Positions 10,264-63,711 are shown, counted from the first letter of the stretch. The stretch: DNA of 64,000 bases from Candidatus Omnitrophota bacterium (GCA_043823005.1 JBDRBG010000013.1:25233-89232), one strand, 5' to 3'. A program made the numbers and translations. Notes: a model not told the origin generated them from the sequence alone.

Positions 10264-10302
10264 CCGTCTTTGCGAGGGAGCAAGAGCGCCCGCGGCAATC
10301 TA
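10264..10302 (+). repeat. family-1 intergenic repeat (CGTCTTTGCGAGG..GCGGCAATCT)
   Basis: CCGTCTTTGCGAGGGAGCAAGAGCGCCCGCGGCAATCT, preceded by the ACGGTTAACCGT palindrome module. Confidence 0.85.
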
Positions 10303-10364
10303 AAGAAGGGTATAGTCCGGGAGCATATGATATACTACATACGGAAAATACAAAAGAGGTAAAT

Positions 10365-10901
10365 ATGGACATAGAACAGTTATGGGAAAAAGCCCAGGAA
10401 AGAACAGAAGTTATAAGAGGCAGAGTTAAATCTCTCCCGACGTTTATGATTACAAAAGTGCCATATATATTTTTAACAGAATCCGTTATTAACGAAGGAC
10501 ATACAGTGATCAGACAAGGAAAGGTAATTGTGGATAAACCCTTGATCTTTCTGCCGGAAGATCTGCCGCAATTTGAAGGTTTTGATTTTGAGGAAAATTT
10601 CGATTTAGAACAAGGCGCGGTACAGATGTTTTTTCTTATGCGGGGGATACGATTTCCTTCTTTGAAATATAATCATTGTTTAGAGAAACTGGATTTAGAA
10701 GAATTATCTTTAACTAAGAGCATTGAAAAATATAAAAACCAGCTGGAAAGAAAAGAGAACACAACAACAGCGCTTATTATAGGACCGGAAGACTGTTGGC
10801 AGTTTTCCGTGCTTATTTATATGGCCGCTTTAGTGGGGCGATGCGCAAAGACAGATATAATAAACTTTATGGATAAGTTTCGAAACAACAGAGGAAGATA
10901 A
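10365..10901 (+). CDS. hypothetical protein
   Basis: 178-aa ORF immediately upstream of glmS with no recognisable motif. Confidence 0.4.
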   Translation: MDIEQLWEKAQERTEVIRGRVKSLPTFMITKVPYIFLTESVINEGHTVIRQGKVIVDKPLIFLPEDLPQFEGFDFEENFDLEQGAVQMFFLMRGIRFPSLKYNHCLEKLDLEELSLTKSIEKYKNQLERKENTTTALIIGPEDCWQFSVLIYMAALVGRCAKTDIINFMDKFRNNRGR

Positions 10902-10908
10902 CAGAAAA

Positions 10909-12765
10909 ATGTGCGGAATTATAGGATATACAGGAAACCGGGAAGCGGTACAAGTTTTGATGGAAGGATTAAGCCGTCTGGAATACCGCGGGTATGATTC
11001 GGCCGGAGTAGCTGTTCTGGAGGACGGGGAACTCTATCTTCGCAAGAAAAAGGGAAAACTCGCGGTATTGGCCGATGAGCTCAACCGGAATCCGCTTACC
11101 GGAGATACAGGGATAGGCCATACCCGGTGGGCAACGCATGGAGTGCCTAATGATGTAAACGCGCATCCGCATGCGGATAATAGATGTGATATCGCGGTTG
11201 TGCATAACGGAATAATTGAAAATTATCAGGAAATAAAAGAAGAACTTCAACGCAAAGGGTATGTTTTTTCTTCGGATACAGACAGCGAAGTAATCGCGCA
11301 TCTTGTGGCGGATAATTATAGAGGAGACCTCAGAATCGCATTAAAAACAGCGCTTGAAAAACTAAAAGGGTCTTTTGCTATCGGCGCGGTGCATAAAAAA
11401 GAAGCCGGGAGGATTGTGGGTGCTAGAAGGGATAGTCCGTTGATCCTGGGAATCGGGGAAAACGAGCATTTTATCGCAAGCGATATTCCCGCAGTTTTGG
11501 AATACACAAAAAACGTTATATATATAGAAAATAATGAAATGGTAGATTTGCATCCGGACAGATATGAGCTTTATGATATAAAGGGAGAAGAGATAAAGAG
11601 GAGTTCTACTTTTATTAAATGGGACATTTCTCAGGCAGAAAAAAAAGGGTATAAACATTTTATGCTTAAAGAAATTTTTGAACAACCAAAGGTATTAAAA
11701 AATATTTTCAAAGAACGGGTAAAAGCGGGAAAAGTAGAATTCGAAGAACTTGAAATACAGGAAGAAGATTTTAGAAATATTACGAACATAGCGATTGTTG
11801 CCTGCGGAACAGCTTATCACGCGGGACTTACAGCCAAGTATATTCTGGAAAAATACAGCAGGATACCCGTTTGGGTAGACACATCAAGTGAATTCAGATA
11901 CAGGGATCCGATTGTGAACGCGAAGAGCCTGGTTATAGTGATATCTCAATCAGGAGAAACCGCGGATACGCTGGCGGCATTAAGAGAGGCAAAAATACGG
12001 GGAGCCAAAGTTCTGGCAGTGTGCAATGTTCTGGGCAGTTCGATATCCAGAGAAGCAAACGGAGTTATTTATACGCACGCGGGACCCGAGATAGCGGTTG
12101 CTTCTACAAAAGCGTATACAGCCCAGCTGGCGATATTATATCTTTTCGCGTATTATCTCGCGAATATACAAAATAAAAAAGATCGATTTGAGCCGGAATT
12201 TTTAACCGAGATACAAAAAATTCCGGATATGACAGAAGAACTATTAAATGATTATTGCGGAGAAGATAATCAGATCGCAGAGTACGCGGCAAAATTTCAT
12301 GAATATTATCTTGCAAGAAACAATAAGAGCTGTTTTCTTTATCTCGGCAGGAACATTAACTATCCAAACGCTTTAGAAGGAGCTTTAAAACTGAAAGAAA
12401 TTTCTTATATCAGCGCAGAAGGATATCCCGCAGGAGAGATGAAGCACGGGCCCATAGCGTTGATTGACGAGAACCCATGGGTTGTGTGTATCGCTCCTCG
12501 ATCCGAGACGCACGAGAAGATGTTGTCTAATATGCAGGAAATAAAAGCAAGAGGCGGGATAGTTATTGCTATAGTGACAAAAGGGGAAAAAGGGATGAAA
12601 GAAAAAGGAGCGAATTATGTGATAAACATACCGTCGGTCCCGGAATTTTTTTCCCCGCTTTTTGTTGTGCTTCCGCTTCAGCTGTTGGCATACTATGTAG
12701 CGGCGGAGTTTGGATATGATATAGATCAGCCAAGGAATCTCGCGAAATCAGTTACTGTGGAATAA
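10909..12765 (+). CDS. glmS: glutamine--fructose-6-phosphate aminotransferase
   Basis: 618 aa with the N-terminal MCGIIGY Ntn-amidotransferase domain and two SIS domains. Confidence 0.95.
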   Translation: MCGIIGYTGNREAVQVLMEGLSRLEYRGYDSAGVAVLEDGELYLRKKKGKLAVLADELNRNPLTGDTGIGHTRWATHGVPNDVNAHPHADNRCDIAVVHNGIIENYQEIKEELQRKGYVFSSDTDSEVIAHLVADNYRGDLRIALKTALEKLKGSFAIGAVHKKEAGRIVGARRDSPLILGIGENEHFIASDIPAVLEYTKNVIYIENNEMVDLHPDRYELYDIKGEEIKRSSTFIKWDISQAEKKGYKHFMLKEIFEQPKVLKNIFKERVKAGKVEFEELEIQEEDFRNITNIAIVACGTAYHAGLTAKYILEKYSRIPVWVDTSSEFRYRDPIVNAKSLVIVISQSGETADTLAALREAKIRGAKVLAVCNVLGSSISREANGVIYTHAGPEIAVASTKAYTAQLAILYLFAYYLANIQNKKDRFEPEFLTEIQKIPDMTEELLNDYCGEDNQIAEYAAKFHEYYLARNNKSCFLYLGRNINYPNALEGALKLKEISYISAEGYPAGEMKHGPIALIDENPWVVCIAPRSETHEKMLSNMQEIKARGGIVIAIVTKGEKGMKEKGANYVINIPSVPEFFSPLFVVLPLQLLAYYVAAEFGYDIDQPRNLAKSVTVE

Positions 12766-12828
12766 GAAACAACGCGGGGCTTGACCCTGACAAGCGGCTG
12801 GGATATAATAAGCTTTTTAAAATTAATG

Positions 12829-12906
12829 GGGCGATTAGCTCAGCTGGTTTAGAGCGCTACCCTTACAAGGTAGATGTCGTAGGTTCGACTCCTACATCGC
12901 CCACCA
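12829..12906 (+). tRNA. tRNA-Val (anticodon TAC)
   Basis: GGGCGATTAGCTCAGCTGG...CTTACAA anticodon loop...GGTTCGACTCC...ATCGCCCACCA. Confidence 0.85.
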
Positions 12907-12977
12907 GCATTTTCGGCTATGCCAAAAGCCTTGCGCGGAAAAACACTAGAAGGGTAGAGAGGGAGAGCGACCCATAA

Positions 12978-13048
12978 CGTCTTTGCGATGGAGTGAAGGG
13001 GAGCGCGGTCCGCCAGAGGCGGATCCGCCTTTGGCGGACACTCTCGCA
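12978..13048 (+). repeat. family-1 repeat, long form, with GGCGGATCCGCC hairpin module
   Basis: CGTCTTTGCGATGGAG...CGCGGTCCGCCAGAGGCGGATCCGCCTTTGGCGGACA. Confidence 0.8.
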
Positions 13049-13167
13049 GTAAAAGGAAAAAGCTCTTTTAAAAAAGACCAAGCATTTTTCCGGAAACCTT
13101 TTTTTGTGAAGAACTAATAAATTTGACGAAAAAAGGTTTCTGTGCTATAAATAAAAACACATTTTTA

Positions 13168-13244
13168 GGGGTGGTAGTTCAGTTGGCTAGAACGTCGGAC
13201 TGTCGATCCGAAGGTCGCGGGTTCAAGCCCCGTCCGCCCCGCCA
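13168..13244 (+). tRNA. tRNA-Asp (anticodon GTC)
   Basis: GGGGTGGTAGTTCAGTTGG...CTGTCGA anticodon loop...GGGTTCAAGCCCC...CCGCCCCGCCA. Confidence 0.85.
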
Positions 13245-13286: not shown

Positions 13287-13365
13287 GAGAGAGAAACAAT
13301 TCAAAGGACTGTTTCGAAATACCCTAAAAGTGTCATGTGTCAAAAGCCAACTTTTGTCTTTGCGA

Positions 13366-13418
13366 GGGAGCGAAGCGACCGCGGCCCTCCTTAGGCGGAT
13401 CCGCCTTTGGCGGACAAT
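13366..13418 (+). repeat. family-1 repeat, long form
   Basis: GTCTTTGCGAGGGAGCGAAGCGACCGCGGCCCTCCTTAGGCGGATCCGCCTTTGGCGGACA. Confidence 0.85.
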
Positions 13419-13675
13419 CCAATAAAAATATAGTTTACCCACAAAATTTATATTTTTATTGCTATTCGAGATTGCTTCGCCCGTTTCATGGGCTCGCAAA
13501 CACATTTTAACTCAGTCCCCTTATTTTCCCCAGTTACTTTTAAGTACACCCTAACAAATTACAATTTTACCCTTTGATTAAATGTTGTTCTTACAGTATA
13601 ATATATTTTAATTAAACCGAAAAAGAAAAAAGTTGCCGGATACCAAGAAAAATAAAATATAAAGAAGGGAGGCGT

Positions 13676-15548: not shown

Positions 15549-15587
15549 AACACAAAAGAACCGGTTAGTTGACAGGAGAGCCTTTTT

Positions 15588-15649
15588 TGCCTTTGAGAGC
15601 GACCCCCGGGAGAGCGGTCCTCCTGAGGCGGATCCGCCTTTGGCGGACA
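15588..15649 (+). repeat. family-1 repeat, degenerate long form
   Basis: TTGCCTTTGAGAGCGACCC..GAGCGGTCCTCCTGAGGCGGATCCGCCTTTGGCGGACA. Confidence 0.6.
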
Positions 15650-15673
15650 AGCTCATAAAGAAGGGGAAAAAAA

Positions 15674-16826: not shown

Positions 16827-16869
16827 CCGTCTTTGCGAGGCACGAGGCAAACGAGTGCCGCGGCAATCT
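16827..16869 (+). repeat. family-1 repeat
   Basis: CGTCTTTGCGAGGCACGAGGCAAACGAGTGCCGCGGCAATCTC. Confidence 0.85.
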
Positions 16870-17009
16870 CGAAAGAAACAGACATAAACACTCAATCTTT
16901 AAGCCCTTAAGATTTTCGGACAGCTCTTGCCGTAGATTAAATAGGGATGTACACTTGGGAAAATGAATTTGTAAAGTAAAAGCTATTCAATAAACACAAA
17001 AAGGGGGCC

Positions 17010-18030: not shown

Positions 18031-21000
18031 GTGTTTAAAAAAGTATTGGTTCTGGTGGTAAGTTTTTTATTAATCAGTCAAAACATTCCGTGTTTTTCTT
18101 CTCCCATTTCGGCTCACTCTCAGCAAAACGTACAAATAACGACATTGTTTAATTTAGCTGATCAGGAAGACGCCTATACGGTGGCTTTAGCAAAATATTT
18201 TTTTGTTTTTTTAGATAAATTAGATACAACATTACAGGGAGCCGATTTTAAGAATGTTGAAAAATTAATTAAGGCGCGGGTCGAACAATTCCAAGACGGA
18301 GCAAAAACCCTCATTAAACACGAGAGAGAGACAAAAAAAGGAATTGTTGAAAAAAATTTGCCAATGATTAAGGTTGATGAAAGCGCAGGCGAACTGTTAG
18401 TTATTATGTCTGATTATATCGTTAGGTATTATAACCCAAAAACATCTAAGAAAGATCAAATTTTAGGAGAAGAGACATTCAAAGAATATTCTTATAAGGT
18501 TAGCGAAGAAGACGATATTAATGGTCGATTGAGAAAACAAATACTCCAAAGAGGGAAAGAACCAGTTTTGGTAAAGTTGCTAATGGAAATGCAAGACAAA
18601 AAAGAGCGGGATGTAACAATAGACGAAATAGCTCAGTTATTGTTATCCCGCAACGAACAAGAATATGTTCTAAGCCTGATGCTTTATATCTTAAATGCTA
18701 TAGAAGAAGTAGGCGAAGATTTTGTGGATGATAAGGTAAATAGGATTTATGAGCAGGCAGACAATATAATAAAGACTGTGGAAAAAAAACTTTTAGATAC
18801 AAAAGATATCAAAAAAAAGATAAAAAACGAATCGAATATAAGAGAAATGTACAGGCATAATTATCCGTTTATTCGCAGGAAAGCCGATGTGGATGGAAAC
18901 TTAAATGAAATAGTGATACATGTTGGAGAGTATGCTTTGCGGTATTATAATGGACAGACAGCGTACGCGAAATATGAGCTTGAAGATCCTGAAGATTCGA
19001 AAAACGCGGAACCGGTCTTTTATTCAGCTGTACAAGAAGGTCCAGTTGATGGGGCTCTACGGGTGCAATTGTTGAAAGTCGAAGACGACGCTGATGCTTC
19101 TCCGGCAGAAACTCCAATAATCTCTGCGGTAAACGCGAGAAACGAACAAAACAAAAGTAATTATCCTTCAGATATAAAACGAGAAGATCCGTATCTGTTT
19201 TTCAGGTTAAGAGAGTTAAGAATGCCTATATATTCGCAGAAAGATGATACTTATTATGTCTGGGATAACGACAGCGTGGAAAAAGTAGTCAAGATGCGGC
19301 ATGATATGGGCGATAACGACGAGAAACTGCCCCCAGTTATTCAGATTGATGAAATGGGTAATGTGAAAGATAGAGTAAAAGAAGAGACTCCGTTATATGA
19401 TATTAATTTCAGAGCAGACCGGCAAAAACAATGGGTCGGGGTAATCCTGGAGAAATCTTTGACCCCGTTTAAGGTAGCGTATCAAATACTTAAAGCAGTT
19501 CTTGTTGTGACCACACAATATTTGCCGATAGTGAACAGCGAAAACGTAATTTTGGAAAAAACAAAAGTGGAAAACGGACTTGTCGAAGTCCTGACCAGAG
19601 AAGGTATTTATGTCAAATATGTATTTGACGCTGAAAAAGGAAAATTTATTCCCGCGTTTAGAGGCGGGCAGGAAGAGCCTTTTGATAAGGAACTGGAAGA
19701 CCTGGAATTTGGATCGATTTCAATGCCTGTTTTAATGACAGAAGAACAATGCAACAAACACGATCCTGCTGTAAAAATGAGGTTAAAAGATAAATATATC
19801 GGCTGGTTTTATGGCGATGTTCCAAAAGGATTAAAGCAGATACCGAATAAAGAATACAGAAAATATCCCGGATTAAGTATGTTTGTTTTAGCCAGAGCAA
19901 CCGCGACAAAAATAAGAGAAGCCAAAGAAGGTACGTTTGGTCTTACTAATCTTGACGGCCCGGATTTAATAGGCCATGTCGCAGGAAAAGACGTCGAGAA
20001 AATAACAGATCTTTTTGTTGAAACCGAAGAAGGCAAATTTGAATTAAAACAAGGGAACGGTTGGGATTGTGTTCTGGAGTGTCTTAAAATAGCTGACGCC
20101 GGACTTAATCTTATGATGAAAGAAGTAGAGGATAAAGAAGGAGTTTTTATTCTTGTTGGAGACCATGGGTCTGTGGATGATATGCGTTTTCCAAATCATT
20201 CGGCTAATGATGTTCCGATATTTATAATAGATTATGAGAATGAAGATATAAAACTTGTAAAATCTACAGGGAGTCAAAAGGATACGCAAGCAGATGTAGC
20301 TGTAACGATCCTTCATGTTTTAGGTATTGATAAACCGACGGAAATGACAGGAAAAAGTCTTTTGCCGGAAGATTATAAAGGAAGAAAAGACAGGATAGTA
20401 TGGCAGGTTATCTTAGACGGGTTCGGGCATACAGACCTTGATCCAGAGCAAAACGCTTTTCTCCGGGCAAGGGAAAAAGGCATAACGCCTACGATCAAAA
20501 AATTATATGACATGAAAAATTATGTGCTTCTTAAAGCCGCGGGGATGTATGCCGGACTGCGCGGGGGATGGGTGGAAGAAATATATGAAATGAATCAACA
20601 AGCAAAAAAAGAAGGAGGGGTTCAGTATGACCCTCTGAAAAGAAAAGCAATGATAACTCAACTGGAAAGCACACAAGACAATTATTGGAAAAAAATAAAA
20701 ATAGTGAATTATGATTATCGGGATATTCCGCAGGCACAGCTGTTGTGTTCTTATGAAAACGGGTTGGACATTCTTAAAAGGTCCAGTTTACTGCAGGATA
20801 AGATGTTTCTGGTTAATTATGACCAGGAGCACTTTATGACAAAAGATATTCCGGACAGAACCGTCGAGGTAGTTTGTCTTGATCTCAGACAAATAGGGTC
20901 AACTGAATATAATACATGGACGCTTGGTGCCGGACGTATAGTTGAACAATCTATAAGGCGTATAGATAAAAGATGGCTTAATGGCACAATGCTTAAGAGT

Positions 21001-22224
21001 AAAGCTCTCCAAAATTTCACAAAACACGCAAAACAAGAAGGCTATGCTCATATAGTCGGCATATTGCAGGAAGCAGGCGTACATGCGTCCGCAAGACAGT
21101 TATATTGGTTAATAGAACATTTAAAAAGGAACGGGGTGAATAGATTTGTATTAGATCTGGCGACTGACGGTAGAGATGAAGGGGGCAGGGACTCTTTGAT
21201 CAGGATAAAAGAACTTAGAGCCGCTTTAAAATTTTATGGCATACAGGATAAAGATTATGTCTTAAATTTGCGGGGCAGGGAGATCTGTTTTGACAGGGCA
21301 AAGAACTGGAACTTAACAGAAGCATGGATAAATGAACTTGTCTGGGGAAGTAGAATAGATAAAAGCATCGGCGCCGGATATATAACGAAAGAACTGATTT
21401 TAAATAGCTATGAAAAGGGGAAAGAACTCTGGGAAAAAATGATTGAAAAACGCTGGTTAGTAAAGGTTAATGACGAAGAAGCTAAAATACAGGACAAGGA
21501 ATGGAGGGAGGACGGAGATTTCGGAGGAGGACTTGATGAATACAAAAACTCTATAGAAGGTATTTTAAAACAGTCCAGATTCAAAAAACTGCTGGATAAC
21601 GAAGGGATCGTTGCGAATATCCTGCGTAATGCTTTCAGCGCATTGAACGAGAACCAAGAAAAACAAATATTGGCTTTTGATCTGGAGCTTGGGAATAAAA
21701 AAGCAGGCAGGTTGATAAAACAGCTTGTACAAGCTATTGAAGAAATGAAACAAGACAATATATTAAATAAGATCCTGAAAAACATAGAGATAATCAAAGT
21801 CAATGGAGCGGAGTTAGGTAACAGACTGGATATTTTGACTAAGAGCGAAACGGGCATAAAAAAAGAGAACATTATCATTATAGCGAAAAAGACAAATAAA
21901 AACTATTTTACGGGATATGATAGCGTCTCGACAATAGCGTATATAGATGATTCGGAACTATCGAAAGAAGACCTTCTTCCATTACCCGAAATAACGCTTT
22001 TTGCAATAGCAAAGCATCTGGGGTGGAGTGCGGATAAATTAGAGCATCTATATGCGTGCATTTTAAATGCAGAAAGTGTTAACAGCTTAGCTGAATTTAC
22101 TGAAAAATTCGGAAAAGACAAAACTTCCTTTATTGTAAAGATTATCCCTAAAGCCGTTAGGTTTGATATGCAGGAATTAAAGGAAGTTGTAGATCAAATG
22201 GTCAGGATATTAAAATACGCTTAA
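18031..22224 (+). CDS. large secreted protein with an embedded iPGM-like / alkaline-phosphatase-superfamily metalloenzyme domain
   Basis: 1397 aa with a signal peptide. The segment from about 19870 to 20400 has NLDGPDLIGHVAG, LVGDHGS and KPTEMTGKSLL, matching iPGM C-terminal motifs (PDMVGH, ADHG, PAEMTGKSL). Confidence 0.7.
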   Translation: MFKKVLVLVVSFLLISQNIPCFSSPISAHSQQNVQITTLFNLADQEDAYTVALAKYFFVFLDKLDTTLQGADFKNVEKLIKARVEQFQDGAKTLIKHERETKKGIVEKNLPMIKVDESAGELLVIMSDYIVRYYNPKTSKKDQILGEETFKEYSYKVSEEDDINGRLRKQILQRGKEPVLVKLLMEMQDKKERDVTIDEIAQLLLSRNEQEYVLSLMLYILNAIEEVGEDFVDDKVNRIYEQADNIIKTVEKKLLDTKDIKKKIKNESNIREMYRHNYPFIRRKADVDGNLNEIVIHVGEYALRYYNGQTAYAKYELEDPEDSKNAEPVFYSAVQEGPVDGALRVQLLKVEDDADASPAETPIISAVNARNEQNKSNYPSDIKREDPYLFFRLRELRMPIYSQKDDTYYVWDNDSVEKVVKMRHDMGDNDEKLPPVIQIDEMGNVKDRVKEETPLYDINFRADRQKQWVGVILEKSLTPFKVAYQILKAVLVVTTQYLPIVNSENVILEKTKVENGLVEVLTREGIYVKYVFDAEKGKFIPAFRGGQEEPFDKELEDLEFGSISMPVLMTEEQCNKHDPAVKMRLKDKYIGWFYGDVPKGLKQIPNKEYRKYPGLSMFVLARATATKIREAKEGTFGLTNLDGPDLIGHVAGKDVEKITDLFVETEEGKFELKQGNGWDCVLECLKIADAGLNLMMKEVEDKEGVFILVGDHGSVDDMRFPNHSANDVPIFIIDYENEDIKLVKSTGSQKDTQADVAVTILHVLGIDKPTEMTGKSLLPEDYKGRKDRIVWQVILDGFGHTDLDPEQNAFLRAREKGITPTIKKLYDMKNYVLLKAAGMYAGLRGGWVEEIYEMNQQAKKEGGVQYDPLKRKAMITQLESTQDNYWKKIKIVNYDYRDIPQAQLLCSYENGLDILKRSSLLQDKMFLVNYDQEHFMTKDIPDRTVEVVCLDLRQIGSTEYNTWTLGAGRIVEQSIRRIDKRWLNGTMLKSKALQNFTKHAKQEGYAHIVGILQEAGVHASARQLYWLIEHLKRNGVNRFVLDLATDGRDEGGRDSLIRIKELRAALKFYGIQDKDYVLNLRGREICFDRAKNWNLTEAWINELVWGSRIDKSIGAGYITKELILNSYEKGKELWEKMIEKRWLVKVNDEEAKIQDKEWREDGDFGGGLDEYKNSIEGILKQSRFKKLLDNEGIVANILRNAFSALNENQEKQILAFDLELGNKKAGRLIKQLVQAIEEMKQDNILNKILKNIEIIKVNGAELGNRLDILTKSETGIKKENIIIIAKKTNKNYFTGYDSVSTIAYIDDSELSKEDLLPLPEITLFAIAKHLGWSADKLEHLYACILNAESVNSLAEFTEKFGKDKTSFIVKIIPKAVRFDMQELKEVVDQMVRILKYA

Positions 22225-22321: not shown

Positions 22322-22397
22322 GCCACGGTAGCTCAGTCGGTAGAGCAGGGGACTGAAAATCCCTGTGTCGGCGGTTCAATTCCGTCCCGTGGCACCA
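22322..22397 (+). tRNA. tRNA-Phe (anticodon GAA)
   Basis: GCCACGGTAGCTCAGTCGGTAGAGCAGGGGACTGAAAATCCC...GGTTCAATTCC...CCGTGGCACCA. Confidence 0.85.
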
Positions 22398-22430: not shown

Positions 22431-22570
22431 ATGGTTAGTGTTATTTGCTGAGACATAAAAGTCTACTCGGAGCAAATAACACATGCTTTTGTCCGCATTA
22501 TTCACCTGTATCGTTCTAAAAAAGTTGACACTTTTTCTGTCGGAGCCGTCTCCTGACGGCGAACCTAATT

Positions 22571-22611
22571 CGTCTTTGCGAGGAGGAGCGTAGTGACGAC
22601 GCGGCAATCTC
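22571..22611 (+). repeat. family-1 repeat
   Basis: CGTCTTTGCGAGGAGGAGCGTAGTGACGACGCGGCAATCTC, preceded by the GAGCCGTCTCCTGACGGCGAACC module. Confidence 0.85.
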
Positions 22612-23832: not shown

Positions 23833-23873
23833 GTAAATAGGGACGTCACCCGCCAGGGAGACGTCCCTATTTA
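23833..23873 (+). repeat. GACGTC-centred hairpin element (family 2), copy 1
   Basis: GTAAATAGGGACGTC-ACCCGCCAGGGA-GACGTCCCTATTTAC. The stop codon of the upstream gene lies in the left arm. Confidence 0.8.
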
Positions 23874-23947
23874 CATTAAGCTATTCTCCTGGTAAACTAG
23901 GAAAATATGCAGGCAAGTAATAATAGTTTCAAGCCAGAGATGTATTC

Positions 23948-24343
23948 ATGCTCAACAATTTGAACAAAAGAAAAGTTTTTGTTACGACACTTTACACAAG
24001 CATTTTTTTCTTGCTTGGAGTGTCTTTTTTGTTTGGGTCTTTTTTCTCTGGGATTTTAATGTTTTCATTGATAACAAGTCTTAAAATGCGACATCAGCAC
24101 AAAAACACAGCAGCAATCATTCTTTTAGTTCTATCCATACTATTTTTAGCATATCCCGGAACATTTATGACAGGAGAAACAGAGGATTTGTTCGCTGTAA
24201 AAATAATGCCGGTTATTTATCAAGAGCACTATCTAAAAGGAGAGGTCAGACAAATAAAAGGAAACATTGTTTTTTGTAAGCATGAAAAAATACCTTTTGC
24301 GCCTAAATGGGCGCTAGTCTTTTGTTTTAGCGGTAGTAAATAG
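23948..24343 (+). CDS. small membrane protein, hypothetical
   Basis: 131 aa with two or three TM segments. It lies between two identical hairpin elements. Confidence 0.4.
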   Translation: MLNNLNKRKVFVTTLYTSIFFLLGVSFLFGSFFSGILMFSLITSLKMRHQHKNTAAIILLVLSILFLAYPGTFMTGETEDLFAVKIMPVIYQEHYLKGEVRQIKGNIVFCKHEKIPFAPKWALVFCFSGSK

Positions 24344-24377
24344 GGACGTCACCCGCCAGGGAGACGTCCCTATTTAC
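24336..24377 (+). repeat. GACGTC-centred hairpin element (family 2), copy 2, identical to copy 1
   Basis: 42-nt identity with 23833-23873, including the embedded TAG stop. Confidence 0.8.
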
Positions 24378-25819: not shown

Positions 25820-26085
25820 AAAGTTACGATCAAAGGGGCTTATTTGTTTGTGCAGGATAACGGAGCCCAGCAAAGGGGATAAAAACTGCATTTAGAACAA
25901 CAGATATTTTCACGATTTTGCTCTCCTCGATGCCATTTAGTTTCACATGTCCAGTAACTTTGGCATTTTTCACAGCAAATAAGTTTTTTCTTCTTTTTTT
26001 GGGACATAGGGCATTCTCCTCTACATGGTATTTGAAAGCAGTAACATAATTATATAATGAAAAAGTTTTTATTTCAATACCAATC

Positions 26086-26120
26086 TGAGGGACGTCACCC
26101 GACAGGGAGACGTCCCTATG
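26086..26120 (+). repeat. GACGTC-centred hairpin element (family 2), diverged copy 3, fused to a family-1 repeat
   Basis: GAGGGACGTCACCCGACAGGGAGACGTCCCTATG is immediately followed by CGTCTTTGCGAGG...GCGGCAATCT. Confidence 0.7.
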
Positions 26121-26124
26121 TATA

Positions 26125-26160
26125 CGTCTTTGCGAGGGAGCACAGCGACCGCGGCAATCT
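26125..26160 (+). repeat. family-1 repeat
   Basis: CGTCTTTGCGAGGGAGCACAGCGACCGCGGCAATCT. Confidence 0.85.
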
Positions 26161-26238
26161 TAATAATAATATGGTTTCCCCCTTTAGTGGTTCGCAAAAA
26201 CGTTATGACACAATCTGATGACAAGGACGTGCCTCATA

Positions 26239-27642: not shown

Positions 27643-27646
27643 AGAG

Positions 27647-28591: not shown

Positions 28592-28596
28592 AGATC

Positions 28597-29163: not shown

Positions 29164-29176
29164 GGAAAAACAGGTC

Positions 29177-30443: not shown

Positions 30444-30483
30444 CCGTCTTTGCGAGGAGGTCGCAGGCCGACGCGGCAATTTC
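30444..30483 (+). repeat. family-1 repeat
   Basis: CGTCTTTGCGAGGAGGTCGCAGGCCGACGCGGCAATTTCTC. Confidence 0.85.
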
Positions 30484-30488
30484 TCCGC

Positions 30489-30525
30489 TGTCTTTGCGAG
30501 GGAGCAAGAGCGACCGCGGCAATCT
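30489..30525 (+). repeat. family-1 repeat in tandem with the preceding copy
   Basis: GTCTTTGCGAGGGAGCAAGAGCGACCGCGGCAATCTC. Confidence 0.85.
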
Positions 30526-30564
30526 CTTTGGTGAATAGCGTCTTGTCTTGAAAGTACAGAGAAG

Positions 30565-30685: not shown

Positions 30686-30720
30686 CGTCTTTGCGAGGAG
30701 CGAAGGGGAGCGCGGCAGTT
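30686..30720 (+). repeat. family-1 repeat, variant 3' end
   Basis: CGTCTTTGCGAGGAGCGAAGGGGAGCGCGGCAGTT. Confidence 0.75.
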
Positions 30721-30821
30721 TATTCAGTGAATAGTGGTGAGTGAATGGTGAATAGTTGCAGGAGCCGTCTCTTCGCCATAATAAGCGGATCCGCCTCAGT
30801 GGGCCAGCGGCGAACCCCTTC

Positions 30822-30863
30822 CGTCATTGCGAGGAGGCGCGGAGCGGCGACGCGGCAATATCG
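30822..30863 (+). repeat. family-1 repeat (GTCATTGCGAGG variant)
   Basis: CGTCATTGCGAGGAGGCGCGGAGCGGCGACGCGGCAATATCG. Confidence 0.8.
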
Positions 30864-34149: not shown

Positions 34150-34186
34150 CGTCTTTGCGAGGGAGCGAAGCGACCGCGGCAATCTC
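34150..34186 (+). repeat. family-1 repeat
   Basis: CGTCTTTGCGAGGGAGCGAAGCGACCGCGGCAATCTC, preceded by the ACGGTTAACCGTCAAC module. Confidence 0.85.
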
Positions 34187-35170: not shown

Positions 35171-35261
35171 ACAAAAAATTAGTTCAGAGGGACACCCCAG
35201 GGATTGAAATTGGGACAGGTCTGGGATTAATTTCAGAACCGTCCCTGATTTCCGCTCTTCT

Positions 35262-35337
35262 GTCTTTGCGAGGGAGCAAGTGTGATTGCGTCAATTCTCC
35301 GTCTTCGCGAGGAGCGTGAGCGACGCGGCAAACTCGG
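35262..35337 (+). repeat. two tandem family-1 repeats, the first degenerate
   Basis: GTCTTTGCGAGGGAGCAAGTGTGATTGCGTCAATTCTC followed by CGTCTTCGCGAGGAGCGTGAGCGACGCGGCAAACTCGG. Confidence 0.75.
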
Positions 35338-35686
35338 ATAGAAATAGAATAAAAAGAAAAAATAAACCACAGAGAGCACAGAGGCACAGAGGGGGAAATA
35401 AGGCGCCTTTGGCGCCGTTCACGGGTCAAGGGTGAAGGGAAAGCGCTTCATCCGTCATTGGAGGAGTGTAGATATTAGGGACGGTTCTGAATTTGAACCT
35501 ACACCTGTCCCAAAATTAATCCCACACCTGTCCCCTAACCGTCGAAAGTTGGGTTTTGAATGGCTCTGTGACTCAGAGGCTCTGTGGTGAAAAATCTGGA
35601 AATCGGTCTTTAAAAAAGTGAATCGTCGTTAGTGAATGGTGAATAGTGAGATTGCCGCGGTCGCTCGTGCTCCCTCGCAAAGACAG
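35338..35686 (+). repeat. upstream flank block of the giant gene: modules Y (CACAGAG-rich), Z and X (CTCTGTGACTCAGAG-containing), then an inverted family-1 copy
   Basis: Shares long stretches with 50840-51072, for example ...AGAAATAGAATAAA..AGAAAAAA..CAGAGAGCACAGAG.CACAGAGGGGG and TTGGGTTTTGAAT.GCTCTGTGACTCAGAG.CTCTGTGG.GAAAAATCTGGAAATCGGTCTTTAAAAAAG. Confidence 0.75.
35648..35686 (-). repeat. family-1 repeat, inverted orientation
   Basis: GAGATTGCCGCGGTCGCTCGTGCTCCCTCGCAAAGACAG. Confidence 0.85.
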
Positions 35687-35707: not shown

Positions 35708-35750
35708 CGTCATTGCGAACCCTGAGCCAAGCGAAGGGTGCGGCAATCTC
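35708..35750 (+). repeat. family-1 repeat, diverged
   Basis: CGTCATTGCGAACCCTGAGCCAAGCGAAGGGTGCGGCAATCTC. Confidence 0.7.
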
Positions 35751-47900: not shown

Positions 47901-50718
47901 TCAATTAACGGAAGAAGAAGGAAATGAATTAAAAAGAAGAATAGAGATAGACGGCTTAAGTTCTTTGCAAGGGGCAAAAGAATACACAAGAAATGTGTTT
48001 GTGGTGTTTAAAGGGAAAATAGATCTTTTAGGGCGGAAAGAAGATATAACAACTGCTATAGAAAAATATGTGATTGTGCAAGCTCTTAAGATGGCGCAGG
48101 GTGAAAAAGAATTAGCGGCGCGAAAACTTCTTATTCCGGAAACTGTGCTGTATCCCAAAATAGAACAAATTATGACACCAGGGACTCTGGATAAAACAAC
48201 TGTTAGTATTGAATATGATTTTACGGATCCGGAATTATTTAAAGAAGCTAAGGAAAGAGAAAATTTAGCTATTGAAAGGCAGATCCGGGATTTTTCAAAA
48301 GGGGAAAAAGATACTATTGATTTAAACGAACTCAAGGGATTAATGAAAAGGGAAATAAATTTTGCAATGGTTTCCTGGGCATTGAAACAATCAGGAGGAA
48401 ACAAGGCTAAAGCGGCGGAATTATTAGGTGTTAGCAAAAGGACGTTGTGGAACAAAACAGAAGAGCAGAATCTGGGGTATGCGGATATACAGGAACTAGA
48501 CGCGGTAAGAGCCGTAGAGACATCTGATAAGACTATAACATTAATTGAAAGGGTGCGCAAAACTAACCAAAAACTGGAGGAATATTTGATGGTCCAGGCA
48601 TTAATATTGACAAAAGGAAACAAACAAGAGGCAGCACGTAAATTAGGGATTTCAAGACGTACTTTGTATGACTATTTAGAACGGAGTAACAAGAGAGAAG
48701 ACTATGCCCCAAAAAGCTTTTGCTGTATGAAACAAGATATCGAGTTAGACAAACTTCTAAAAGAGATTAGATGCTATTTTAGGGCGCGAGAACAAGAAGA
48801 ACTTTTAGTTGATTCTAATATGTTGAAAAAAGAATGGCTGAAGGAAGAAAAAATGGAAGAGAGTGTAGCTTTTTTCTTATCTTTTTTTTCTGAAGGAATG
48901 GTAGATATTGTTAATGAGATCAGACAATTTGAAATGAACGCAATAGAGAATATTGATTTGACAAAACTAATACAAAGAATAGCAAACGAAATAGAAGCGA
49001 TGATAATTTCTGAAATATTACATAAAACAAAAGGTCATAGAACTAAAACAGCAGAATTGTTAGAAGTGAGCAGAAGGACGCTTTATGAGAGGATGGAACA
49101 ATGCAAACTGCTTTATCCTGAAAGAACAGCACAATACGCGGAAAAAGCGAAATGGGGCAAAGATGTTCATGTTAAGTTAAAAGATGTGCGGGCAAAGATC
49201 GATGACAAAATGAAAGAATATTTAAGCAGAGTTGCTTTGTTGAAAACCAAAAGGAATCGCACAGCAGCGGCGTGTTGTCTAGGGATTTCCAAACGTACTT
49301 TATATGACTATTTAATTGAAATAAACAGTGCAAGAGGCGACAAAGAGTATTCATTAGCATTTGTTAAAGAATTCAAGAGTTTACCCGTACTGCTAGAAGA
49401 AATCTTACAATGTTTGACGAAACCTTGTTCGCTTGAAAAGAATATATTCCGGGAAGAAATGGATAGCCTTGTCGGCCATGCAAAACCAGAAAAAAAAGAC
49501 ATACTTACTATAGACGAAGCCTATCAATATGTTGCTAAAGCAACAGAAAATATTGATACGGACAAGTCAATGGCTATAACAGAAGAGATTTTAAAGTACC
49601 CAATAAACGATATTTTGGTTGTGGGCACAGGTTTGATCGGGATGTCGTTTTTATTGGCGCTTATGGATAAACAAGTGACTTTTGTGGATCCTTGCGTGGA
49701 CAAGGTCCGGGATATGGAGCGATGGGCTCAAGCAATAGAGCAACAGACAGGACAACCCCTAAACATACAATTTGTTTGCGCATCAATCGATGAAATTAAT
49801 GAACAAAAGTATGATCTTATTACTTTGATTGATTTTGAAGAAAACGCATTAGGTGTCGAATTTGACAAAGCATTATCAAAGGCTCGGGAAATTCTTCGCG
49901 AAAGAGCATATCTTGTAATAGATAGTAACTATAACGGAAAGGGAATAAAAGTTCTAGAGGATTATTTTAAGACCTGGCAAATGTCCGGTAACAATAAGTT
50001 TTATGAGGGGAGAATCTCTAAGTATGCAAAGAACCGGATTGTTTTAGTCGAAAATCCGGAGGTAGCAGAACCAGAGAAAGAGATATTTGAGCAAGAGCAA
50101 AACAGTGCAGGAAAAGATTTTTTTGATGAACTGATTATTCAAGCAATTAAGGCAAAGCGACGCAGAGAAAAAATATTGATAGCTATTGATATAAGCTGGA
50201 TCCCTGAGATGCATCAATCTTTTATGCAGGGGGTTTTAAATCAATTGGCGCGGATATACAGAAAAAAAGGCCTGGATAATGTTTTAATACATAGAAGGCC
50301 TGACGCGGAAAGGACGATAAAGATGATAAAAGACACAATTTTTTATGAAGATATTAAACTATCAAATGTTATAGCTGTTACAGGAAAAGAAACAATAGAA
50401 TCCGGATTTTTTAATGAAATAAGAAGCAGTGAAAATGAAAAAAAAGCGCTTTTACTCGGGATCAGCAATAAGGATTTGAACGGAGAAATTGATTTGGAGG
50501 ATATGGTCAATTATATCGGAATTTTAGAAATGCTTACAGGTGCTTTAAAATTAGTTTCTTGTAAAAAAGAACCGGAATCAATCGAAATTCCCGGTGTCGG
50601 AGAATTTAAAAGAATAACACCGCGTACCTGGGTAGTATTTCCCAAAGAACGCAGACTAGTTGAAGAAGTAAAAAAAGAATATAAAACCCAAAAAAAACAC
50701 ATAAAATCCGCCGCATAA
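35926..50718 (+). CDS. giant multidomain protein (4930 aa): TM N-terminus, tandem ~300-aa repeats, two SecA-like ATPase modules, multiple Fis/NtrC-type HTH modules and a C-terminal Rossmann-like domain
   Basis: Uninterrupted 14.8-kb ORF. SecA hallmarks occur twice ([10 protein letters not shown], GxGKTL, [9 protein letters not shown](R/K)GV(Q/H)IHT(T/V)N(N/D)YLAKRDA, IVDE(A/G)DS(L/I)LIDE, GGRGVDI/GARGVHI, GDPGSSR-like). There are 12 or more HTH units of the form ...TKGN(K/R)[18 protein letters not shown]. Confidence 0.8.
   Translation: [4930 protein letters not shown]
39880..41830 (+). other. SecA-like motor module 1 within the giant ORF (NBD1, NBD2, helical scaffold-like)
   Basis: [13 protein letters not shown]...[16 protein letters not shown]...[37 protein letters not shown]...[12 protein letters not shown]...[10 protein letters not shown]...[21 protein letters not shown]...[12 protein letters not shown]. 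Confidence 0.75.
44870..46790 (+). other. SecA-like motor module 2 within the giant ORF
   Basis: [17 protein letters not shown]...[16 protein letters not shown]...[37 protein letters not shown]...[12 protein letters not shown]...[11 protein letters not shown]...GGLYVIGSG...[27 protein letters not shown]. Confidence 0.75.
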
Positions 50719-50803
50719 ACCCCGGAAATGGGGACGGTTGTTGTATACGCTCAATAATTTGGTAACATTTTTTAAGGGGGCCTTACTGCTAACTTCGTTT
50801 GTC

Positions 50804-50839
50804 GTCATTGCGAGAAGCAAGAGCGACGCGGCAAACTCG
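50804..50839 (+). repeat. family-1 repeat
   Basis: CGTCATTGCGAGAAGCAAGAGCGACGCGGCAAACTCG. Confidence 0.8.
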
Positions 50840-51072
50840 AATGAAAATAGAATAAAGAAAAAAAATTAACCTCAGAGAGCACAGAGACACAGAGGGGGGA
50901 AACAAACTGAGGCGAGAAGAGGGAAAAAAGATATTGTTGGGTTTTGAATAGCTCTGTGACTCAGAGACTCTGTGGAGAAAAATCTGGAAATCGGTCTTTA
51001 AAAAAGCGAATAGTAGTTGGTGCATAGTGGAAAGAGATTGCCGCGGTCGCTCAAGCTCCCTCGCAAAGACGG
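50840..51072 (+). repeat. downstream flank block of the giant gene, homologous to 35338-35686
   Basis: Modules Y and X and an inverted family-1 copy occur in the same order as upstream. Confidence 0.75.
51034..51072 (-). repeat. family-1 repeat, inverted orientation
   Basis: GAGATTGCCGCGGTCGCTCAAGCTCCCTCGCAAAGACGG. Confidence 0.85.
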
Positions 51073-51171
51073 ATGAGGTTCGCTTTCGGACGTGTCCTGC
51101 GCCTGAGCAACGCGAATGGAACAGGGAGATGGCTCCGACTAACGACCCCCGACTAACGACTAACGTGCCGG

Positions 51172-51250
51172 AATGGGGACGTTTCTGAAACTAATCCCAG
51201 ACCCGTCCCAATTTCAATCCCACACCTGTCCCCTAACAGTTGATAGGCAG
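51172..51250 (+). repeat. module Z (AATCCCAGACCCGTCCCAATTTCAATCCCACACCTGTCCCCTAAC)
   Basis: Direct copy of 35463-35550 and inverted copy of 35190-35250. Confidence 0.7.
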
Positions 51251-51358
51251 TTTGTAGATGGTCCTGAAACTGATGCAGTAGATGTCCCTAATATAAAAAT
51301 CACTTGCGTTGTTTAGCGTTATTTGATAGAATCACAGCTTACAAGAATCACATTCTAT

Positions 51359-55229: not shown

Positions 55230-55278
55230 TCGTTGGTCGTTCGTTGTTAATAGCCCTCTCCCGACGGCGAACCTCACC

Positions 55279-55320
55279 CGTCATTGCGAGGAGGAACGAA
55301 GTGACGACGCGGCAATCTCG
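55279..55320 (+). repeat. family-1 repeat
   Basis: CGTCATTGCGAGGAGGAACGAAGTGACGACGCGGCAATCTCG, preceded by the AGTCGTTAGTCGTT and CCCTCTCCCGACGGCGAACC modules. Confidence 0.85.
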
Positions 55321-56829: not shown

Positions 56830-56876
56830 GGGAGATTGCCGTGCTACTCGCTAGGCTTGCGGCTCGCAATGACAAA
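56830..56876 (-). repeat. family-1 repeat, inverted and diverged
   Basis: GAGATTGCCGTGCTACTCGCTAGGCTTGCGGCTCGCAATGACAAAAG. Confidence 0.7.
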
Positions 56877-56887
56877 AGCTTGTTCGT

Positions 56888-56926
56888 TAGTGCGAAGGCC
56901 GAGGCAAACGAGGTCTGCGGCAATCT
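56888..56926 (+). repeat. family-1 repeat with a degenerate 5' end
   Basis: GTGCGAAGGCCGAGGCAAACGAGGTCTGCGGCAATCTC. Confidence 0.7.
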
Positions 56927-57018
56927 CAAAAAAGTGGCAACCTTTTTAGAGTGATACAGAATTAACTAAAACAATCAACGAATTTAACGGCATACGATAC
57001 GATAACGAAAGGAAAGAA

Positions 57019-59250: not shown

Positions 59251-59340
59251 ATCTTTTGATCTTTTTTCTTTTTATTGAGAGGGCATTGACATTCTCTAGG
59301 CTCGCGTCTCATGATCAGGCTATGTCGCAATTCAGATTTC

Positions 59341-59378
59341 GTCTTTGCGAGGGAGCAAGAGCGACCGCGGCAATCTCC
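59341..59378 (+). repeat. family-1 repeat
   Basis: CGTCTTTGCGAGGGAGCAAGAGCGACCGCGGCAATCTC. Confidence 0.85.
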
Positions 59379-60952: not shown

Positions 60953-61225
60953 TATTTGATCCTTTCTTATTTTTTAAACAATGTACTAAAAGCTTATTAT
61001 AAGACAAACTGCCTATTGTAAACAAGAGGATAATTAATAACAGTTCTCAGTTAAGGCGGCGGTCGTTTGTAGGAGCCCTTTTTCCGTCGTAATATGTGAA
61101 TCCGCCTTTGGAGGACCGCATCGTCTCTTTCCGCCTGAGGCGGACCCGTCCTTTGGCGGGCGTTCCTTCTCGCAAAAACAAAAAAGATCTATTCCTCCAT
61201 TAGGCTGTGGTGCAATTTAAACTCT

Positions 61226-61262
61226 GTCTTTGCGAGGGAGCAAAGCGACCGCGGCAATCTCC
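61226..61262 (+). repeat. family-1 repeat
   Basis: GTCTTTGCGAGGGAGCAAAGCGACCGCGGCAATCTCC. Upstream (61060-61175) has GGCGGA/TCCGCC-type modules. Confidence 0.85.
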
Positions 61263-62394: not shown

Positions 62395-62483
62395 TCGTTC
62401 GTCGTTAGTAGGAGCCCTCTCCTGAGGGCGAACAGAATGAAGGGAAAAGAGAAAAGGAAAAAGTTGGGGAGAGAATTTTTTTC

Positions 62484-62526
62484 CTCTTTGCGAGGCCTGA
62501 GGCAGACGAAGGCCGCGGCAATCTCG
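62484..62526 (+). repeat. family-1 repeat
   Basis: CCTCTTTGCGAGGCCTGAGGCAGACGAAGGCCGCGGCAATCTCG. Confidence 0.8.
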
Positions 62527-62544
62527 ACATAGGAGCAAAATTAT

Positions 62545-63561
62545 ATGAAAGTAGGCGTATACTACAACAACAACGATGTCCGAGTAGAAGAACGTTCTAT
62601 TCCCAAAATAGGGCCGGATGAAGTATTGGTAAAAGTCATTGCCAGCGGTATTTGCGGAAGCGATGTAATGGAATGGTACCGCATAAAAAAAGCTCCTTTA
62701 GTATTAGGACATGAAATATCCGGAGAAATAGCTGAAATAGGAGAAAATGTAGATAGATATAAAATAGGGGACAGGGTATTTGTTGCGCATCATGTGCCGT
62801 GTAATACTTGCCATTACTGCTTGAAGGATGAACAGACTGTTTGCGATACTTTACTTTCTACCAATTATGATCCCGGAGGATTTGCAGAATACATTAGAGT
62901 GCCAGAGATCAATGTGGATCGGGGGATATTTTTGCTTCCCGAAGAATTAACGCATGAACACGGTGTTTTTGCCGAACCGCTTGCTTGTGTCGTACGCGGA
63001 CAAAGAAAAGCAGGAGTAAGACCGGGGCAGAGTGTTCTTATTCTGGGCAGCGGGATGTCAGGATTATTGCATCTTTTATTGGCCCGGGCGCAAGGAGCGG
63101 GCCGGATTATGATGACTGATATAGATGAATTTCGCCTGAAAAAAGCTCAAGAGTTGGGAGCAGACGCTGTTATCAACGCTAAAAGCGATATTCCCGGCCA
63201 GGTAATGGCGCTTAATAGCAGGCTTGCGGATATAGTTATTGTATGTACAAGCGCGTTAACTGCGTTTAATCAGGCAATAAATTCTGTAGATCGAGGCGGA
63301 ATTATTTTATTGTTTGCTCCGTTAGACCCGGATAAATATCTCTCTCTTCCGCTTTTTAATGTTTGGCGTAATGGAACAAAACTAATACCTTCATACGGAA
63401 ACAGCCCTCCGGATGCTGAAGAAGCCATAGAATTAATGCGTTCAAAAAAAGTTTCCATAGACAAACTGATAACCCATAAACTTAAATTAGACGATATAGC
63501 ACAGGGTTTTAATCTTGTCAGCCAGGCCAAAGAATCCATTAAAGTTATTATCTACCCCTGA
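62545..63561 (+). CDS. zinc-dependent alcohol dehydrogenase (MDR family, threonine/sorbitol dehydrogenase-like)
   Basis: Motifs GICGSDV...GHEISGEIAEIG...GSGMSG. Confidence 0.8.
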   Translation: MKVGVYYNNNDVRVEERSIPKIGPDEVLVKVIASGICGSDVMEWYRIKKAPLVLGHEISGEIAEIGENVDRYKIGDRVFVAHHVPCNTCHYCLKDEQTVCDTLLSTNYDPGGFAEYIRVPEINVDRGIFLLPEELTHEHGVFAEPLACVVRGQRKAGVRPGQSVLILGSGMSGLLHLLLARAQGAGRIMMTDIDEFRLKKAQELGADAVINAKSDIPGQVMALNSRLADIVIVCTSALTAFNQAINSVDRGGIILLFAPLDPDKYLSLPLFNVWRNGTKLIPSYGNSPPDAEEAIELMRSKKVSIDKLITHKLKLDDIAQGFNLVSQAKESIKVIIYP

Positions 63562-63567
63562 CGTGTT

Positions 63568-63711
63568 ATAAATGGGGACGAGTGTACGCGCTCAACAATT
63601 AAGTAACAGTTCTTAAGGGGGTACTTCCTGCTAACTTCGTCTGTCGTCATTGCTGGAGCATGAGCGACGCGGCAAACTGGGTGGGAAGTAAATGGTGACG
63701 TCCCCATTTAT
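63568..63711. mobile_element. MITE-like 144-bp element with perfect 13-bp terminal inverted repeats
   Basis: ATAAATGGGGACG at 63568-63580 and CGTCCCCATTTAT at 63699-63711. The interior carries a family-1 repeat copy and is homologous to 50725-50840. Confidence 0.6.
63644..63680 (+). repeat. family-1 repeat inside the MITE-like element
   Basis: CGTCATTGCTGGAGCATGAGCGACGCGGCAAACTGG. Confidence 0.75.

Follow-up and report, generated by a model that had tools for sequence, protein, structure and literature searches.

Dispersed intergenic DNA hairpins near the replication origin of a Candidatus Omnitrophota genome as probable Ssn-related motifs

The locus and its repeats

A stretch of 64,000 nucleotides from a Candidatus Omnitrophota bacterium (GCA_043823005.1, JBDRBG010000013.1:25233-89232), hereafter the window, was analysed for a family of short hairpin repeats in its intergenic regions, which is considered here in relation to the Ssn-related motifs (SRM) described around Neisseria SsnA and its homologs. 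The window begins at the replication origin with dnaA, dnaN, gyrB and gyrA, and its GC skew is positive after about 2 kb. A PpiD-like protein encoded here is 100% identical to one from a Candidatus Omnitrophota metagenome-assembled genome. Since nearly all genes are located on the + strand, coding strand and lagging-strand template coincide there.

Twenty-five copies of the form CGTC(T/A)TTGCGAG–variable stem-loop–GCGGCAATCTC were found between positions 10265 and 63679, of which 18 are strong or full and seven degenerate or interrupted. The first-pass annotation of the window had reported at least 24 copies between 10264 and 63680 and described them as dispersed intergenic hairpin repeats with conserved ends and a variable core, lying in both orientations, singly or in tandem, and this description was confirmed. 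The 5' box CGTCWTTGCGAGG matched 21 times with at most one mismatch, against 0.09 matches expected from shuffled sequence. A regular expression spanning the 5' and 3' boxes returned the 18 full copies, 36-43 nt in length, and the covariance model R1 recovered the same 18 at E<1e-4 together with weaker or partial ones. Beyond these, there are three interrupted copies (12978, 13355, 15587), three degenerate ones (30686, 35261, 56885) and one at 63645-63679. The + strand carries 22 copies and the − strand three (35648, 51034 and 56832; binomial p=1.6e-4). Two tandem pairs are present (30445/30489 and 35261/35300), and neighbouring copies are arranged only as ++ and −+ pairs, with no convergent +/− doublet in the window. 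All 25 copies are intergenic, and with about 10.3 kb of non-coding DNA in the 64 kb this corresponds to a density of about 2.4 copies per kb of non-coding DNA. The statement that almost all copies lie within about 100 bp of gene ends could be kept only in part, since every copy is within 305 bp of a gene end but only about half are within 100 bp.

Both boxes are almost invariant, while the cores differ in 17 of the 18 full copies. Positions T3, C4, T6 and G8-A11 of the 5' box and C2-A7 and T10 of the 3' box are the same in all 18. The 5' head starts with C or T, followed by G (17/18), T (18/18), C (18/18) and then T or A, and GCAAT is followed by C in 16 copies. The reciprocal stem inserts reported earlier, CAC with GTG (at 16828) and CCT with AGG (at 62483), are real, and a third, CCCT with AGGG, is found at 35708.

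The copies are listed here from the origin onwards, on the + strand unless stated otherwise and with their R1 scores. The first (10265..10302; 40.3 bits, E=2e-9) lies between tRNA-Glu and the ORF (open reading frame) at 10365. The next three carry a 30-nt double-hairpin insert (TCCGCC-NNN-GGCGGA, twice). At 12978..13045 it stands between GCGG and CA(A/C)TC of a copy whose 5' box has one mismatch (family D9), at 13355..13420 the identical insert interrupts the 3' box (partial match at 13362-13385, 23.3 bits; families D9/D20), and the degenerate copy at 15587..15654, with the same insert, is 80% identical to the copy at 13352 (family D20). The insert occupies one identical point of the 3' box in the three copies and is either a nested insertion or the sign of a composite subfamily. 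Four of the six tRNA genes of the window (Glu, Val, Asp and Phe; 10029-13244 and 22322-22397) are followed by a copy in the same orientation 71-173 nt downstream. The copy with the CAC/GTG extension (16828..16870; 46.1 bits) is followed by one of a GA-rich stem type with a GCCGTC/GACGGC hairpin module directly before it (22571..22611; 42.9 bits; families D7/D8), and by a further copy at 26125..26161 (48.9 bits).

The genes rnfC, rnfD, G, E and A are parted from rnfB by a 591-nt spacer which contains four copies and a heptamer run (26308-31773). The copies in this region are the tandem pair 30445..30483 (46.3 bits) and 30489..30526 (44.8 bits), a degenerate copy with an exact 5' box (30686..30722; 14.3 bits, E=0.08) and the copy at 30822..30862 (36.8 bits). 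The highest score of all was obtained for 34150..34186 (55.5 bits), with a GCGAAGC apex. A degenerate copy with one mismatch in the 5' box (35261..35299) abuts 35300..35335 (27.5 bits), and 35648..35685 (− strand; 44.3 bits) stands head-to-head with the CCCT/AGGG copy at 35708..35750 (37.8 bits). Just 3' of a giant ORF lies 50803..50838 (35.5 bits), followed by 51034..51071 (− strand; 48.8 bits) and by 55279..55319 (45.3 bits) in the purD-purE spacer. Another head-to-head pair consists of 56832..56874 (− strand; 26.8 bits) and the degenerate 56885..56927 (12.1 bits; family D3). The nrdR-ppiD spacer contains 59340..59377 (49.9 bits), followed by 61225..61261 (50.0 bits), the CCT/AGG copy 62483..62525 (33.2 bits), which ends 19 nt before the ATG at 62545, and a degenerate copy identified by direct reading at 63645..63679 (CGTCATTGCTGGAGCATGAGCGACGCGGCAAACTG), whose upstream module is the same as that of the 50803 copy.

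Hairpin structure and strand asymmetry

The repeat has the architecture 5'-CGTC–(A/T)TTGC–GA–G-variable stem-loop-C–GCG–GCAA(T)–CTC-3'. Conservation extends to the GTC head, the outer helix ATTGC/GCAAT, a small internal loop (GA/GCG) and the C that follows the palindrome; the distal stem varies but pairs, and a GNA triloop and tandem G·A pairs are frequent in it. A structure consisting of ATTGC/GCAAT, G-C, an A·G/bulged-G internal loop and five variable pairs was tested on an alignment of 64 distinct copies from across genomes. Paired cells amounted to 87.4%, versus 75.4% in shuffles, and the covariation score was 0.212 versus 0.049 (0/500 shuffles), while sliding the pairing partners gave at most 56% paired cells. 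The compensatory stem changes that the first-pass annotation had suspected could thus be substantiated, and a genuine hairpin under selection is well supported.

Among 101 distinct cores the first pair is G-C in 98, and further inward there follow Watson-Crick pairs or tandem G·A/A·G. The latter make up most of the non-Watson-Crick cells (115) and would be C·T mismatches on the opposite strand; G·T and T·G together account for 26 cells, versus nine for A·C and C·A. An apical C-GNA-G triloop is present in 44 of the 101 cores on the top strand and in two on the reverse strand. The motifs d(C-GNA-G) and d(GCGAAGC) form unusually stable DNA mini-hairpins, and C-GNA-G is a hallmark of DNA hairpins. 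Nearest-neighbour DNA folding made the top strand more stable than its complement by 0.4-2 kcal/mol in ten of ten window copies. Such an asymmetry is the mark of a hairpin in single-stranded DNA, not of a duplex site.

Readings of the repeats as CRISPR, attC, small ribozymes or K-turn RNA were rejected. CRISPR would call for regular arrays or cas genes, which are missing, and attC for GTTRRRY cores, which are missing as well; the internal loop differs from a canonical K-turn, and no model matched.

Occurrence in other bacteria and association with a GIY-YIG gene

Species-representative genomes were scanned with the pattern CGTCWTTGCGAG-N12-24-GCGGCAATCTC. At least 116 loci, distributed over about 19 bacterial phyla, contained the exact boxes. 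They belong to Alpha- and Gammaproteobacteria (Rickettsia, Sphingopyxis, Kangiella, Thiohalobacter), 'Deltaproteobacteria', Bacteroidota, Planctomycetota, Chloroflexota, Nitrospirota, Calditrichia, Omnitrophica, Elusimicrobia, Firmicutes, Campylobacter and three lineages of the Candidate Phyla Radiation (CPR), among others. The window has no DNA in common with the loci fetched from other genomes. The possibility that the copies are restricted to the window, which had been raised at the outset, is decisively contradicted by this cross-phylum distribution. Only nine of 2.9 million viral contigs carry the exact pattern, and a phage origin is therefore unlikely. A full-text literature search for the repeat sequence returned unrelated primer matches only.

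The arrangement of copies in these genomes is varied. Convergent +/− doublets account for 95 of 119 adjacent pairs. In GC-rich loci 95 of 292 copies fell 'inside ORFs', which is regarded as an artefact of greedy ORF calling. A tandem array of five copies with a 129-nt period was observed in a metagenome-assembled genome (MAG) of Pseudomonadota (L073, 6230-6782), and tandem units of 208-225 nt in a Prolixibacteraceae genome (L031, 6394-7800). Marine Gammaproteobacteria contain a composite of GGAACCTCTGATTTATT, a 35-nt (+) copy, about 22 nt with CTGATTCC and a 29-nt (−) copy (L024, L051, L055, L093, L107, L113, L115), which looks like a doublet unit in the style of REPINs.

Clustering of the ORFs from the at least 116 pattern-selected loci was performed to find gene families adjoining copies. 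Among the loci listed, the only recurrent copy-adjacent family was a GIY-YIG protein of about 96 aa (VYIMTNK..LYTG.T.NL..R..QHK), with an ORF within 300 nt of a copy in four of the loci (L062, L069, L116 and, frameshifted, L102). The protein consists of a single GIY-YIG domain of 96-98 aa (Pfam PF01541, E=5e-16 to 9e-10), and the spacing of its residues Y9/Y20/E67 equals that of the catalytic Y6/Y17/E64 of SsnA. A search of the PDB for a solved Ssn gave only the N-terminal domain of UvrC (E=0.0016). Relatives of 95-104 aa form at least 7,999 clusters, annotated as 'GIY-YIG nuclease family protein'.

The association was also examined starting from the gene. In 80 metagenome loci encoding relatives with 59-72% identity to the ~96-aa protein, the repeat was present within 300 nt of the gene in 78 and on both sides in 68. 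Copy density was 6.06 per kb near the gene versus 0.22 farther away, a 28-fold excess, with a background for the detection regular expression of six matches in 1.16 Mb of shuffled sequence. On the upstream side, the copy closest to the gene is on the + strand in 58 of 75 loci and ends a median of 25 nt ahead of the start codon; on the downstream side, the closest copy is on the − strand in 60 of 71 loci and starts a median of 6 nt past the stop.

Identification as Ssn-related motifs

Chenal et al. (2025, Nat Commun 16:2388; PMC11893778) defined the Neisseria NTS (CGTCATTCCCGCGMAVGCGGGAATCYRG), its variant NTSvar (CGTCATACTCGGG-N5-CCCGAGTATC) and the broader SRM which flank SsnA homologs. SsnA is a 94-aa single-domain GIY-YIG protein (cd10448) which binds the hairpin as single-stranded DNA (ssDNA) only; dsDNA, RNA and the reverse strand are not bound, and cleavage takes place a few nucleotides upstream. 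In Neisseria the Ssn system limits transformation. According to their mutagenesis, the three bases 5' of the palindrome are most important for cleavage, the C just 3' of it is most critical for binding by N. meningitidis SsnA, and the loop of the NTS tolerates replacement or extension. With its NTS-ssnA-NTS layout the unit is similar to an insertion sequence, 2% of NTS are inside genes, and taxa rich in SRM include Rickettsia, Wolbachia and Sphingomonas (PMC11893778). SsnA-associated repeats are already a benchmark class in a 2026 preprint.

The repeats of the window are very probably SRM of the NTS-like kind, i.e. short DNA hairpins which act on one strand only, as ssDNA. They are filed as such because the CGTC(A/T)TT head, the palindrome, the GCGG(C)AATC tail and the critical GTC and C are held in common with the NTS. 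An oriented 5' head (H)GTC(W)(Y) stands just upstream of the palindrome, the GTC being conserved; the copies form imperfect inverted repeats of 36-43 nt, inside the 20-50 nt range of SRM, whose ability to fold is indicated by covariation; and a conserved C follows immediately 3' of the palindrome. The SRM-ssn-SRM linkage is found in other genomes, not in the window itself. The exact pattern is present in Rickettsia and in the sphingomonad Sphingopyxis, and both Rickettsia and Sphingomonas belong to the published SRM-rich taxa.

A number of observations weigh against this identification. No ssn or GIY-YIG gene was found in the 64-kb window by tblastn. The published SRM string, HGTCWYN(0-2)YYVSBRHN(0-5)WNVSBRGN(0-2)RNCYNB, matches no window copy and none of three cross-phylum consensus types, and its sole match in the window (30766) is not a copy. 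The subfamily is missed because TGCGAG stands where YY is required and because its core is longer; the string is meant for searching and does not define the motif biologically, and the TTGCGAG subfamily may consequently have been under-counted. Three of ten window copies did not adopt the canonical shape as their minimum free energy fold, which the other seven did, and the z-scores of the ten ssDNA folds (−2.1 to +1.35) are unremarkable. Since individual z-scores are not significant, the structural case rests on covariation and not on stability. Finally, the 22:3 strand bias is confounded, since the + strand serves at once for coding and as template of the lagging strand. In other genomes no orientation bias was seen among single copies relative to the local GC skew (31 vs 36), nor any preference relative to flanking genes (52 vs 45), and orientation was rejected as a family-wide property on these grounds.

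Insertion history and proposed mechanism

A relative from the Omnitrophota (L206) is syntenic over giant ORF–purB–purM–purD–purE–…–glyA–…–nrdR–ppiD–deoC–adh, with PpiD proteins 49% identical. No copy is present in its 21 kb, where the orthologous spacers were compared, and these spacers are far shorter. The purD and purE genes overlap in L206 but are 131 nt apart in the window; the rpiB–glyA spacer measures 31 vs 241 nt, nrdR–ppiD 4 vs 256 nt and deoC–adh 49 vs 150 nt, each of the longer spacers containing copies. The window copies are therefore lineage-specific insertions and not conserved regulators.

The spacers of the window are mosaics built of several small repeat modules. A module of about 34 nt ending in GACGGCGAACC(N5) precedes all four GA-rich 'GAGGAGG...GACGAC' copies (22537-22570, 30411-30444, 30788-30821 and 55245-55278; families D7/D8), so that SRM types move together with particular upstream modules, attached on the side which Ssn would cut. 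Runs of the heptamers (GTGAATR)n, (AGTCGTT)n and (CACAGAG)n adjoin copies (16713, 30718, 35609, 50997, 56768; 30382, 55218, 62383; 35370, 50873). They recall the STRR repeats of cyanobacteria, and in a locus from Calditrichia (L065) a comparable run lies directly beside a copy. Two identical instances of a 42-nt palindromic hairpin, GTAAATAGGGACGTCACCCGCCAGGGAGACGTCCCTATTTAC, each follow a gene stop immediately (23833-23874 and 24336-24377), and a third instance with 79% identity (26082-26123) lies directly upstream of a copy (family D14). About 400 nt of mosaic modules including copies are duplicated on both sides of the giant ORF (35300-35692 and 50803-51271), with 74-89% identity and a slightly rearranged order (families D11, D12, D13, D15).

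By homology with NTS/SsnA, a GIY-YIG Ssn of about 95 aa should bind the folded, single-stranded top strand and nick it on the 5' side of the CGTC head, a few nucleotides away. A complete unit is SRM(+)–ssn–SRM(−), similar to an insertion sequence, and the solitary copies of the window would be non-autonomous derivatives that invaded and lengthened spacers, standing to ssn as REP sequences (repetitive extragenic palindromes) stand to genes of RAYTs (REP-associated tyrosine transposases). We infer that the genome encodes a cognate Ssn outside the window, which would bind and cut the copies and be responsible for their spread. The 22:3 bias would put the cleavable strand on the lagging-strand template. 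As a bolder and rather doubtful proposal, the 96-aa GIY-YIG nuclease could be a replication-fork-coupled ssDNA transposase or 'repeat spreader', a class apart from HUH/Y1 enzymes, which would build mosaics like those of BIMEs (bacterial interspersed mosaic elements), and the TTGCGAG subfamily may represent the system's most widespread branch. A footprint of such a spreader is suggested by the SRM in almost every long spacer near oriC, the 22:3 bias, the small hairpin and heptamer modules joined at the 5' (cleavage) side and the single module found at the same 3'-box point in three copies.

If the identification is correct, a system characterised in 2025 accounts for a conspicuous repeat feature of this genome, and the Ssn/SRM system is extended to Omnitrophota and to a subfamily, present in about 19 phyla, which escapes the published search pattern. 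With copies that are dense, strand-biased and, by comparison with a syntenic relative, demonstrably inserted, this genome lends itself to the question of whether the repeats are spread by Ssn itself. The variable, covarying distal stem agrees with a replaceable loop (PMC11893778), which matters for the proposed applications as an ssDNA tool.

Alternative explanations

The copies could be fossils of an SRM–ssn element that was once present, its nuclease gone and the repeats left as neutral, decaying spacer DNA. The lack of an ssn gene in the 64 kb and the seven degenerate or interrupted copies would agree with this, as would the published finding that 19% of genomes with more than 200 SRM have no detectable Ssn homolog (PMC11893778). 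Free decay is nevertheless unlikely, as near-invariant boxes in 18 copies, differing cores in 17 of them and compensatory stem changes within the window point to continued constraint or to recent spread from diverse masters.

It is quite improbable that the elements act mainly as RNA, as hairpins of untranslated regions or operon spacers which stabilise, process or attenuate mRNAs like E. coli REPs. Such a role could be read from the co-orientation of 22 of the 25 copies with genes, from copies within operons (e.g. rnfA-rnfB and purD-purE), from the copy ending 19 nt before a start codon and from the excess of G·U-compatible pairs over A·C. However, at the Rfam gathering threshold the window yielded six tRNAs only and no family for the repeats, and permissive scans of a doublet and of the rnfA-rnfB spacer gave matches at chance level (e.g. 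CRISPR-DR31, 15.8 bits against a threshold of 35). Between 50.5 and 64 kb, 11 terminator-like and 35 promoter-like sites were found, both counts equal to the shuffle expectation, and none overlaps a copy. The lack of gene-relative orientation and the prevalence of convergent doublets in other genomes, the copy-free orthologous spacers of L206 and the C-GNA-G triloops typical of DNA also stand against it, and SsnA does not bind RNA (PMC11893778).

A classical REP/REPIN family mobilised by a RAYT, i.e. an IS200/IS605-like Y1 HUH enzyme, has been largely refuted. Imperfect palindromes that are short, intergenic and conserved in their 5' head, the inverted doublets of other genomes and the BIME-like clustering with modules are what such a family would show, but the head is CGTC and not GTAG, and the recurrent neighbour is the GIY-YIG gene, from the copy side in the loci listed as well as from the gene side (78/80). 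The first-pass annotation had noted no RAYT or IS200-like gene in the window, and indeed none was present among the about 30 window ORFs scanned with Pfam.

The same annotation had speculated that the repeats are bound by the giant ORF (35926-50718, + strand; 4930 aa), which encodes two SecA-like modules (SecA_DEAD x2, SecA_PP_bind x2, P-loop_SecA x4) and, in its C-terminal region, four Fis-type helix-turn-helix (HTH_8) domains; in L206 this position is occupied by an ORF longer than 3704 aa (19244-21458). Duplex sites for this or another regulator, which the bipartite conserved ends, the copies on both flanks of the ORF and its HTH domains might suggest, are scarcely credible given a repeat in about 19 phyla with a GIY-YIG nuclease as cognate gene, strand-specific G·A pairs, GNA loops and core covariation not expected of such sites, and the absence of copies from L206 with its orthologous ORF.

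Comparison with known systems

With these alternatives weighed, an SRM identity of the window repeats can be set against related systems. Correia elements are different, being MITEs (miniature inverted-repeat transposable elements) of 100-155 bp with 26-bp terminal inverted repeats and an unrelated sequence. IS200/IS605 elements (IS608) share the strand-specific recognition of ssDNA hairpins and cleavage a short distance 5' of the hairpin. Ton-Hoang and colleagues reportedly found in 2010 that the active strand of IS608-type elements lies on the lagging-strand template, as do most window copies. In contrast to these elements, the repeats are associated with no TnpA/TnpB, measure about 40 nt without cargo and lack an orientation bias in other genomes.

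The resemblance to REP and BIME sequences pointed out in the first-pass annotation holds in the sense of analogous elements. REP/REPIN-RAYT systems and BIMEs likewise comprise short hairpins which are abundant between genes and have a conserved 5' head, along with inverted doublets, one nuclease gene between two inverted repeats, mosaics with small modules and action through ssDNA hairpins. The differences concern the partner, which is GIY-YIG and not HUH/Y1, the head (CGTC instead of GTAG), and the near-identity of the boxes across phyla, whereas REP sequences differ between genera.

The closest relatives are the Neisseria NTS and the broader SRM with SsnA and its homologs, and the earlier statement that the sequence is unrelated to known elements had to be abandoned, as CGTCATT...GCGG(G/C)AATC is common to the repeat and to the NTS. 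The NTS is the long form of dRS3 (ATTCCC-N8-GGGAAT), of which the ATTGC...GCAAT of the window repeat is the counterpart. The window repeat differs in that its stem starts with TTGCGAG and not TTCCCGCG, in a freely covarying distal stem with tandem G·A beyond a conserved internal loop (GA/GCG), and in position 5, which is T instead of A in most window copies. Moreover, the window is without a visible ssn gene, and its host is an Omnitrophota MAG without evidence of natural competence. On the other hand, the window repeat and the NTS/SRM class are both directional hairpins of 30-45 nt with a CGTCAT(T) head, a palindrome and a ...GCGG(G/C)AATC tail with its C; both are intergenic, often clustered and distributed over many phyla; and both are associated with a single-domain GIY-YIG gene of about 95 aa flanked on either side by inverted copies. 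The freely varying distal stem of the window repeat fits the replaceable loop of the NTS.

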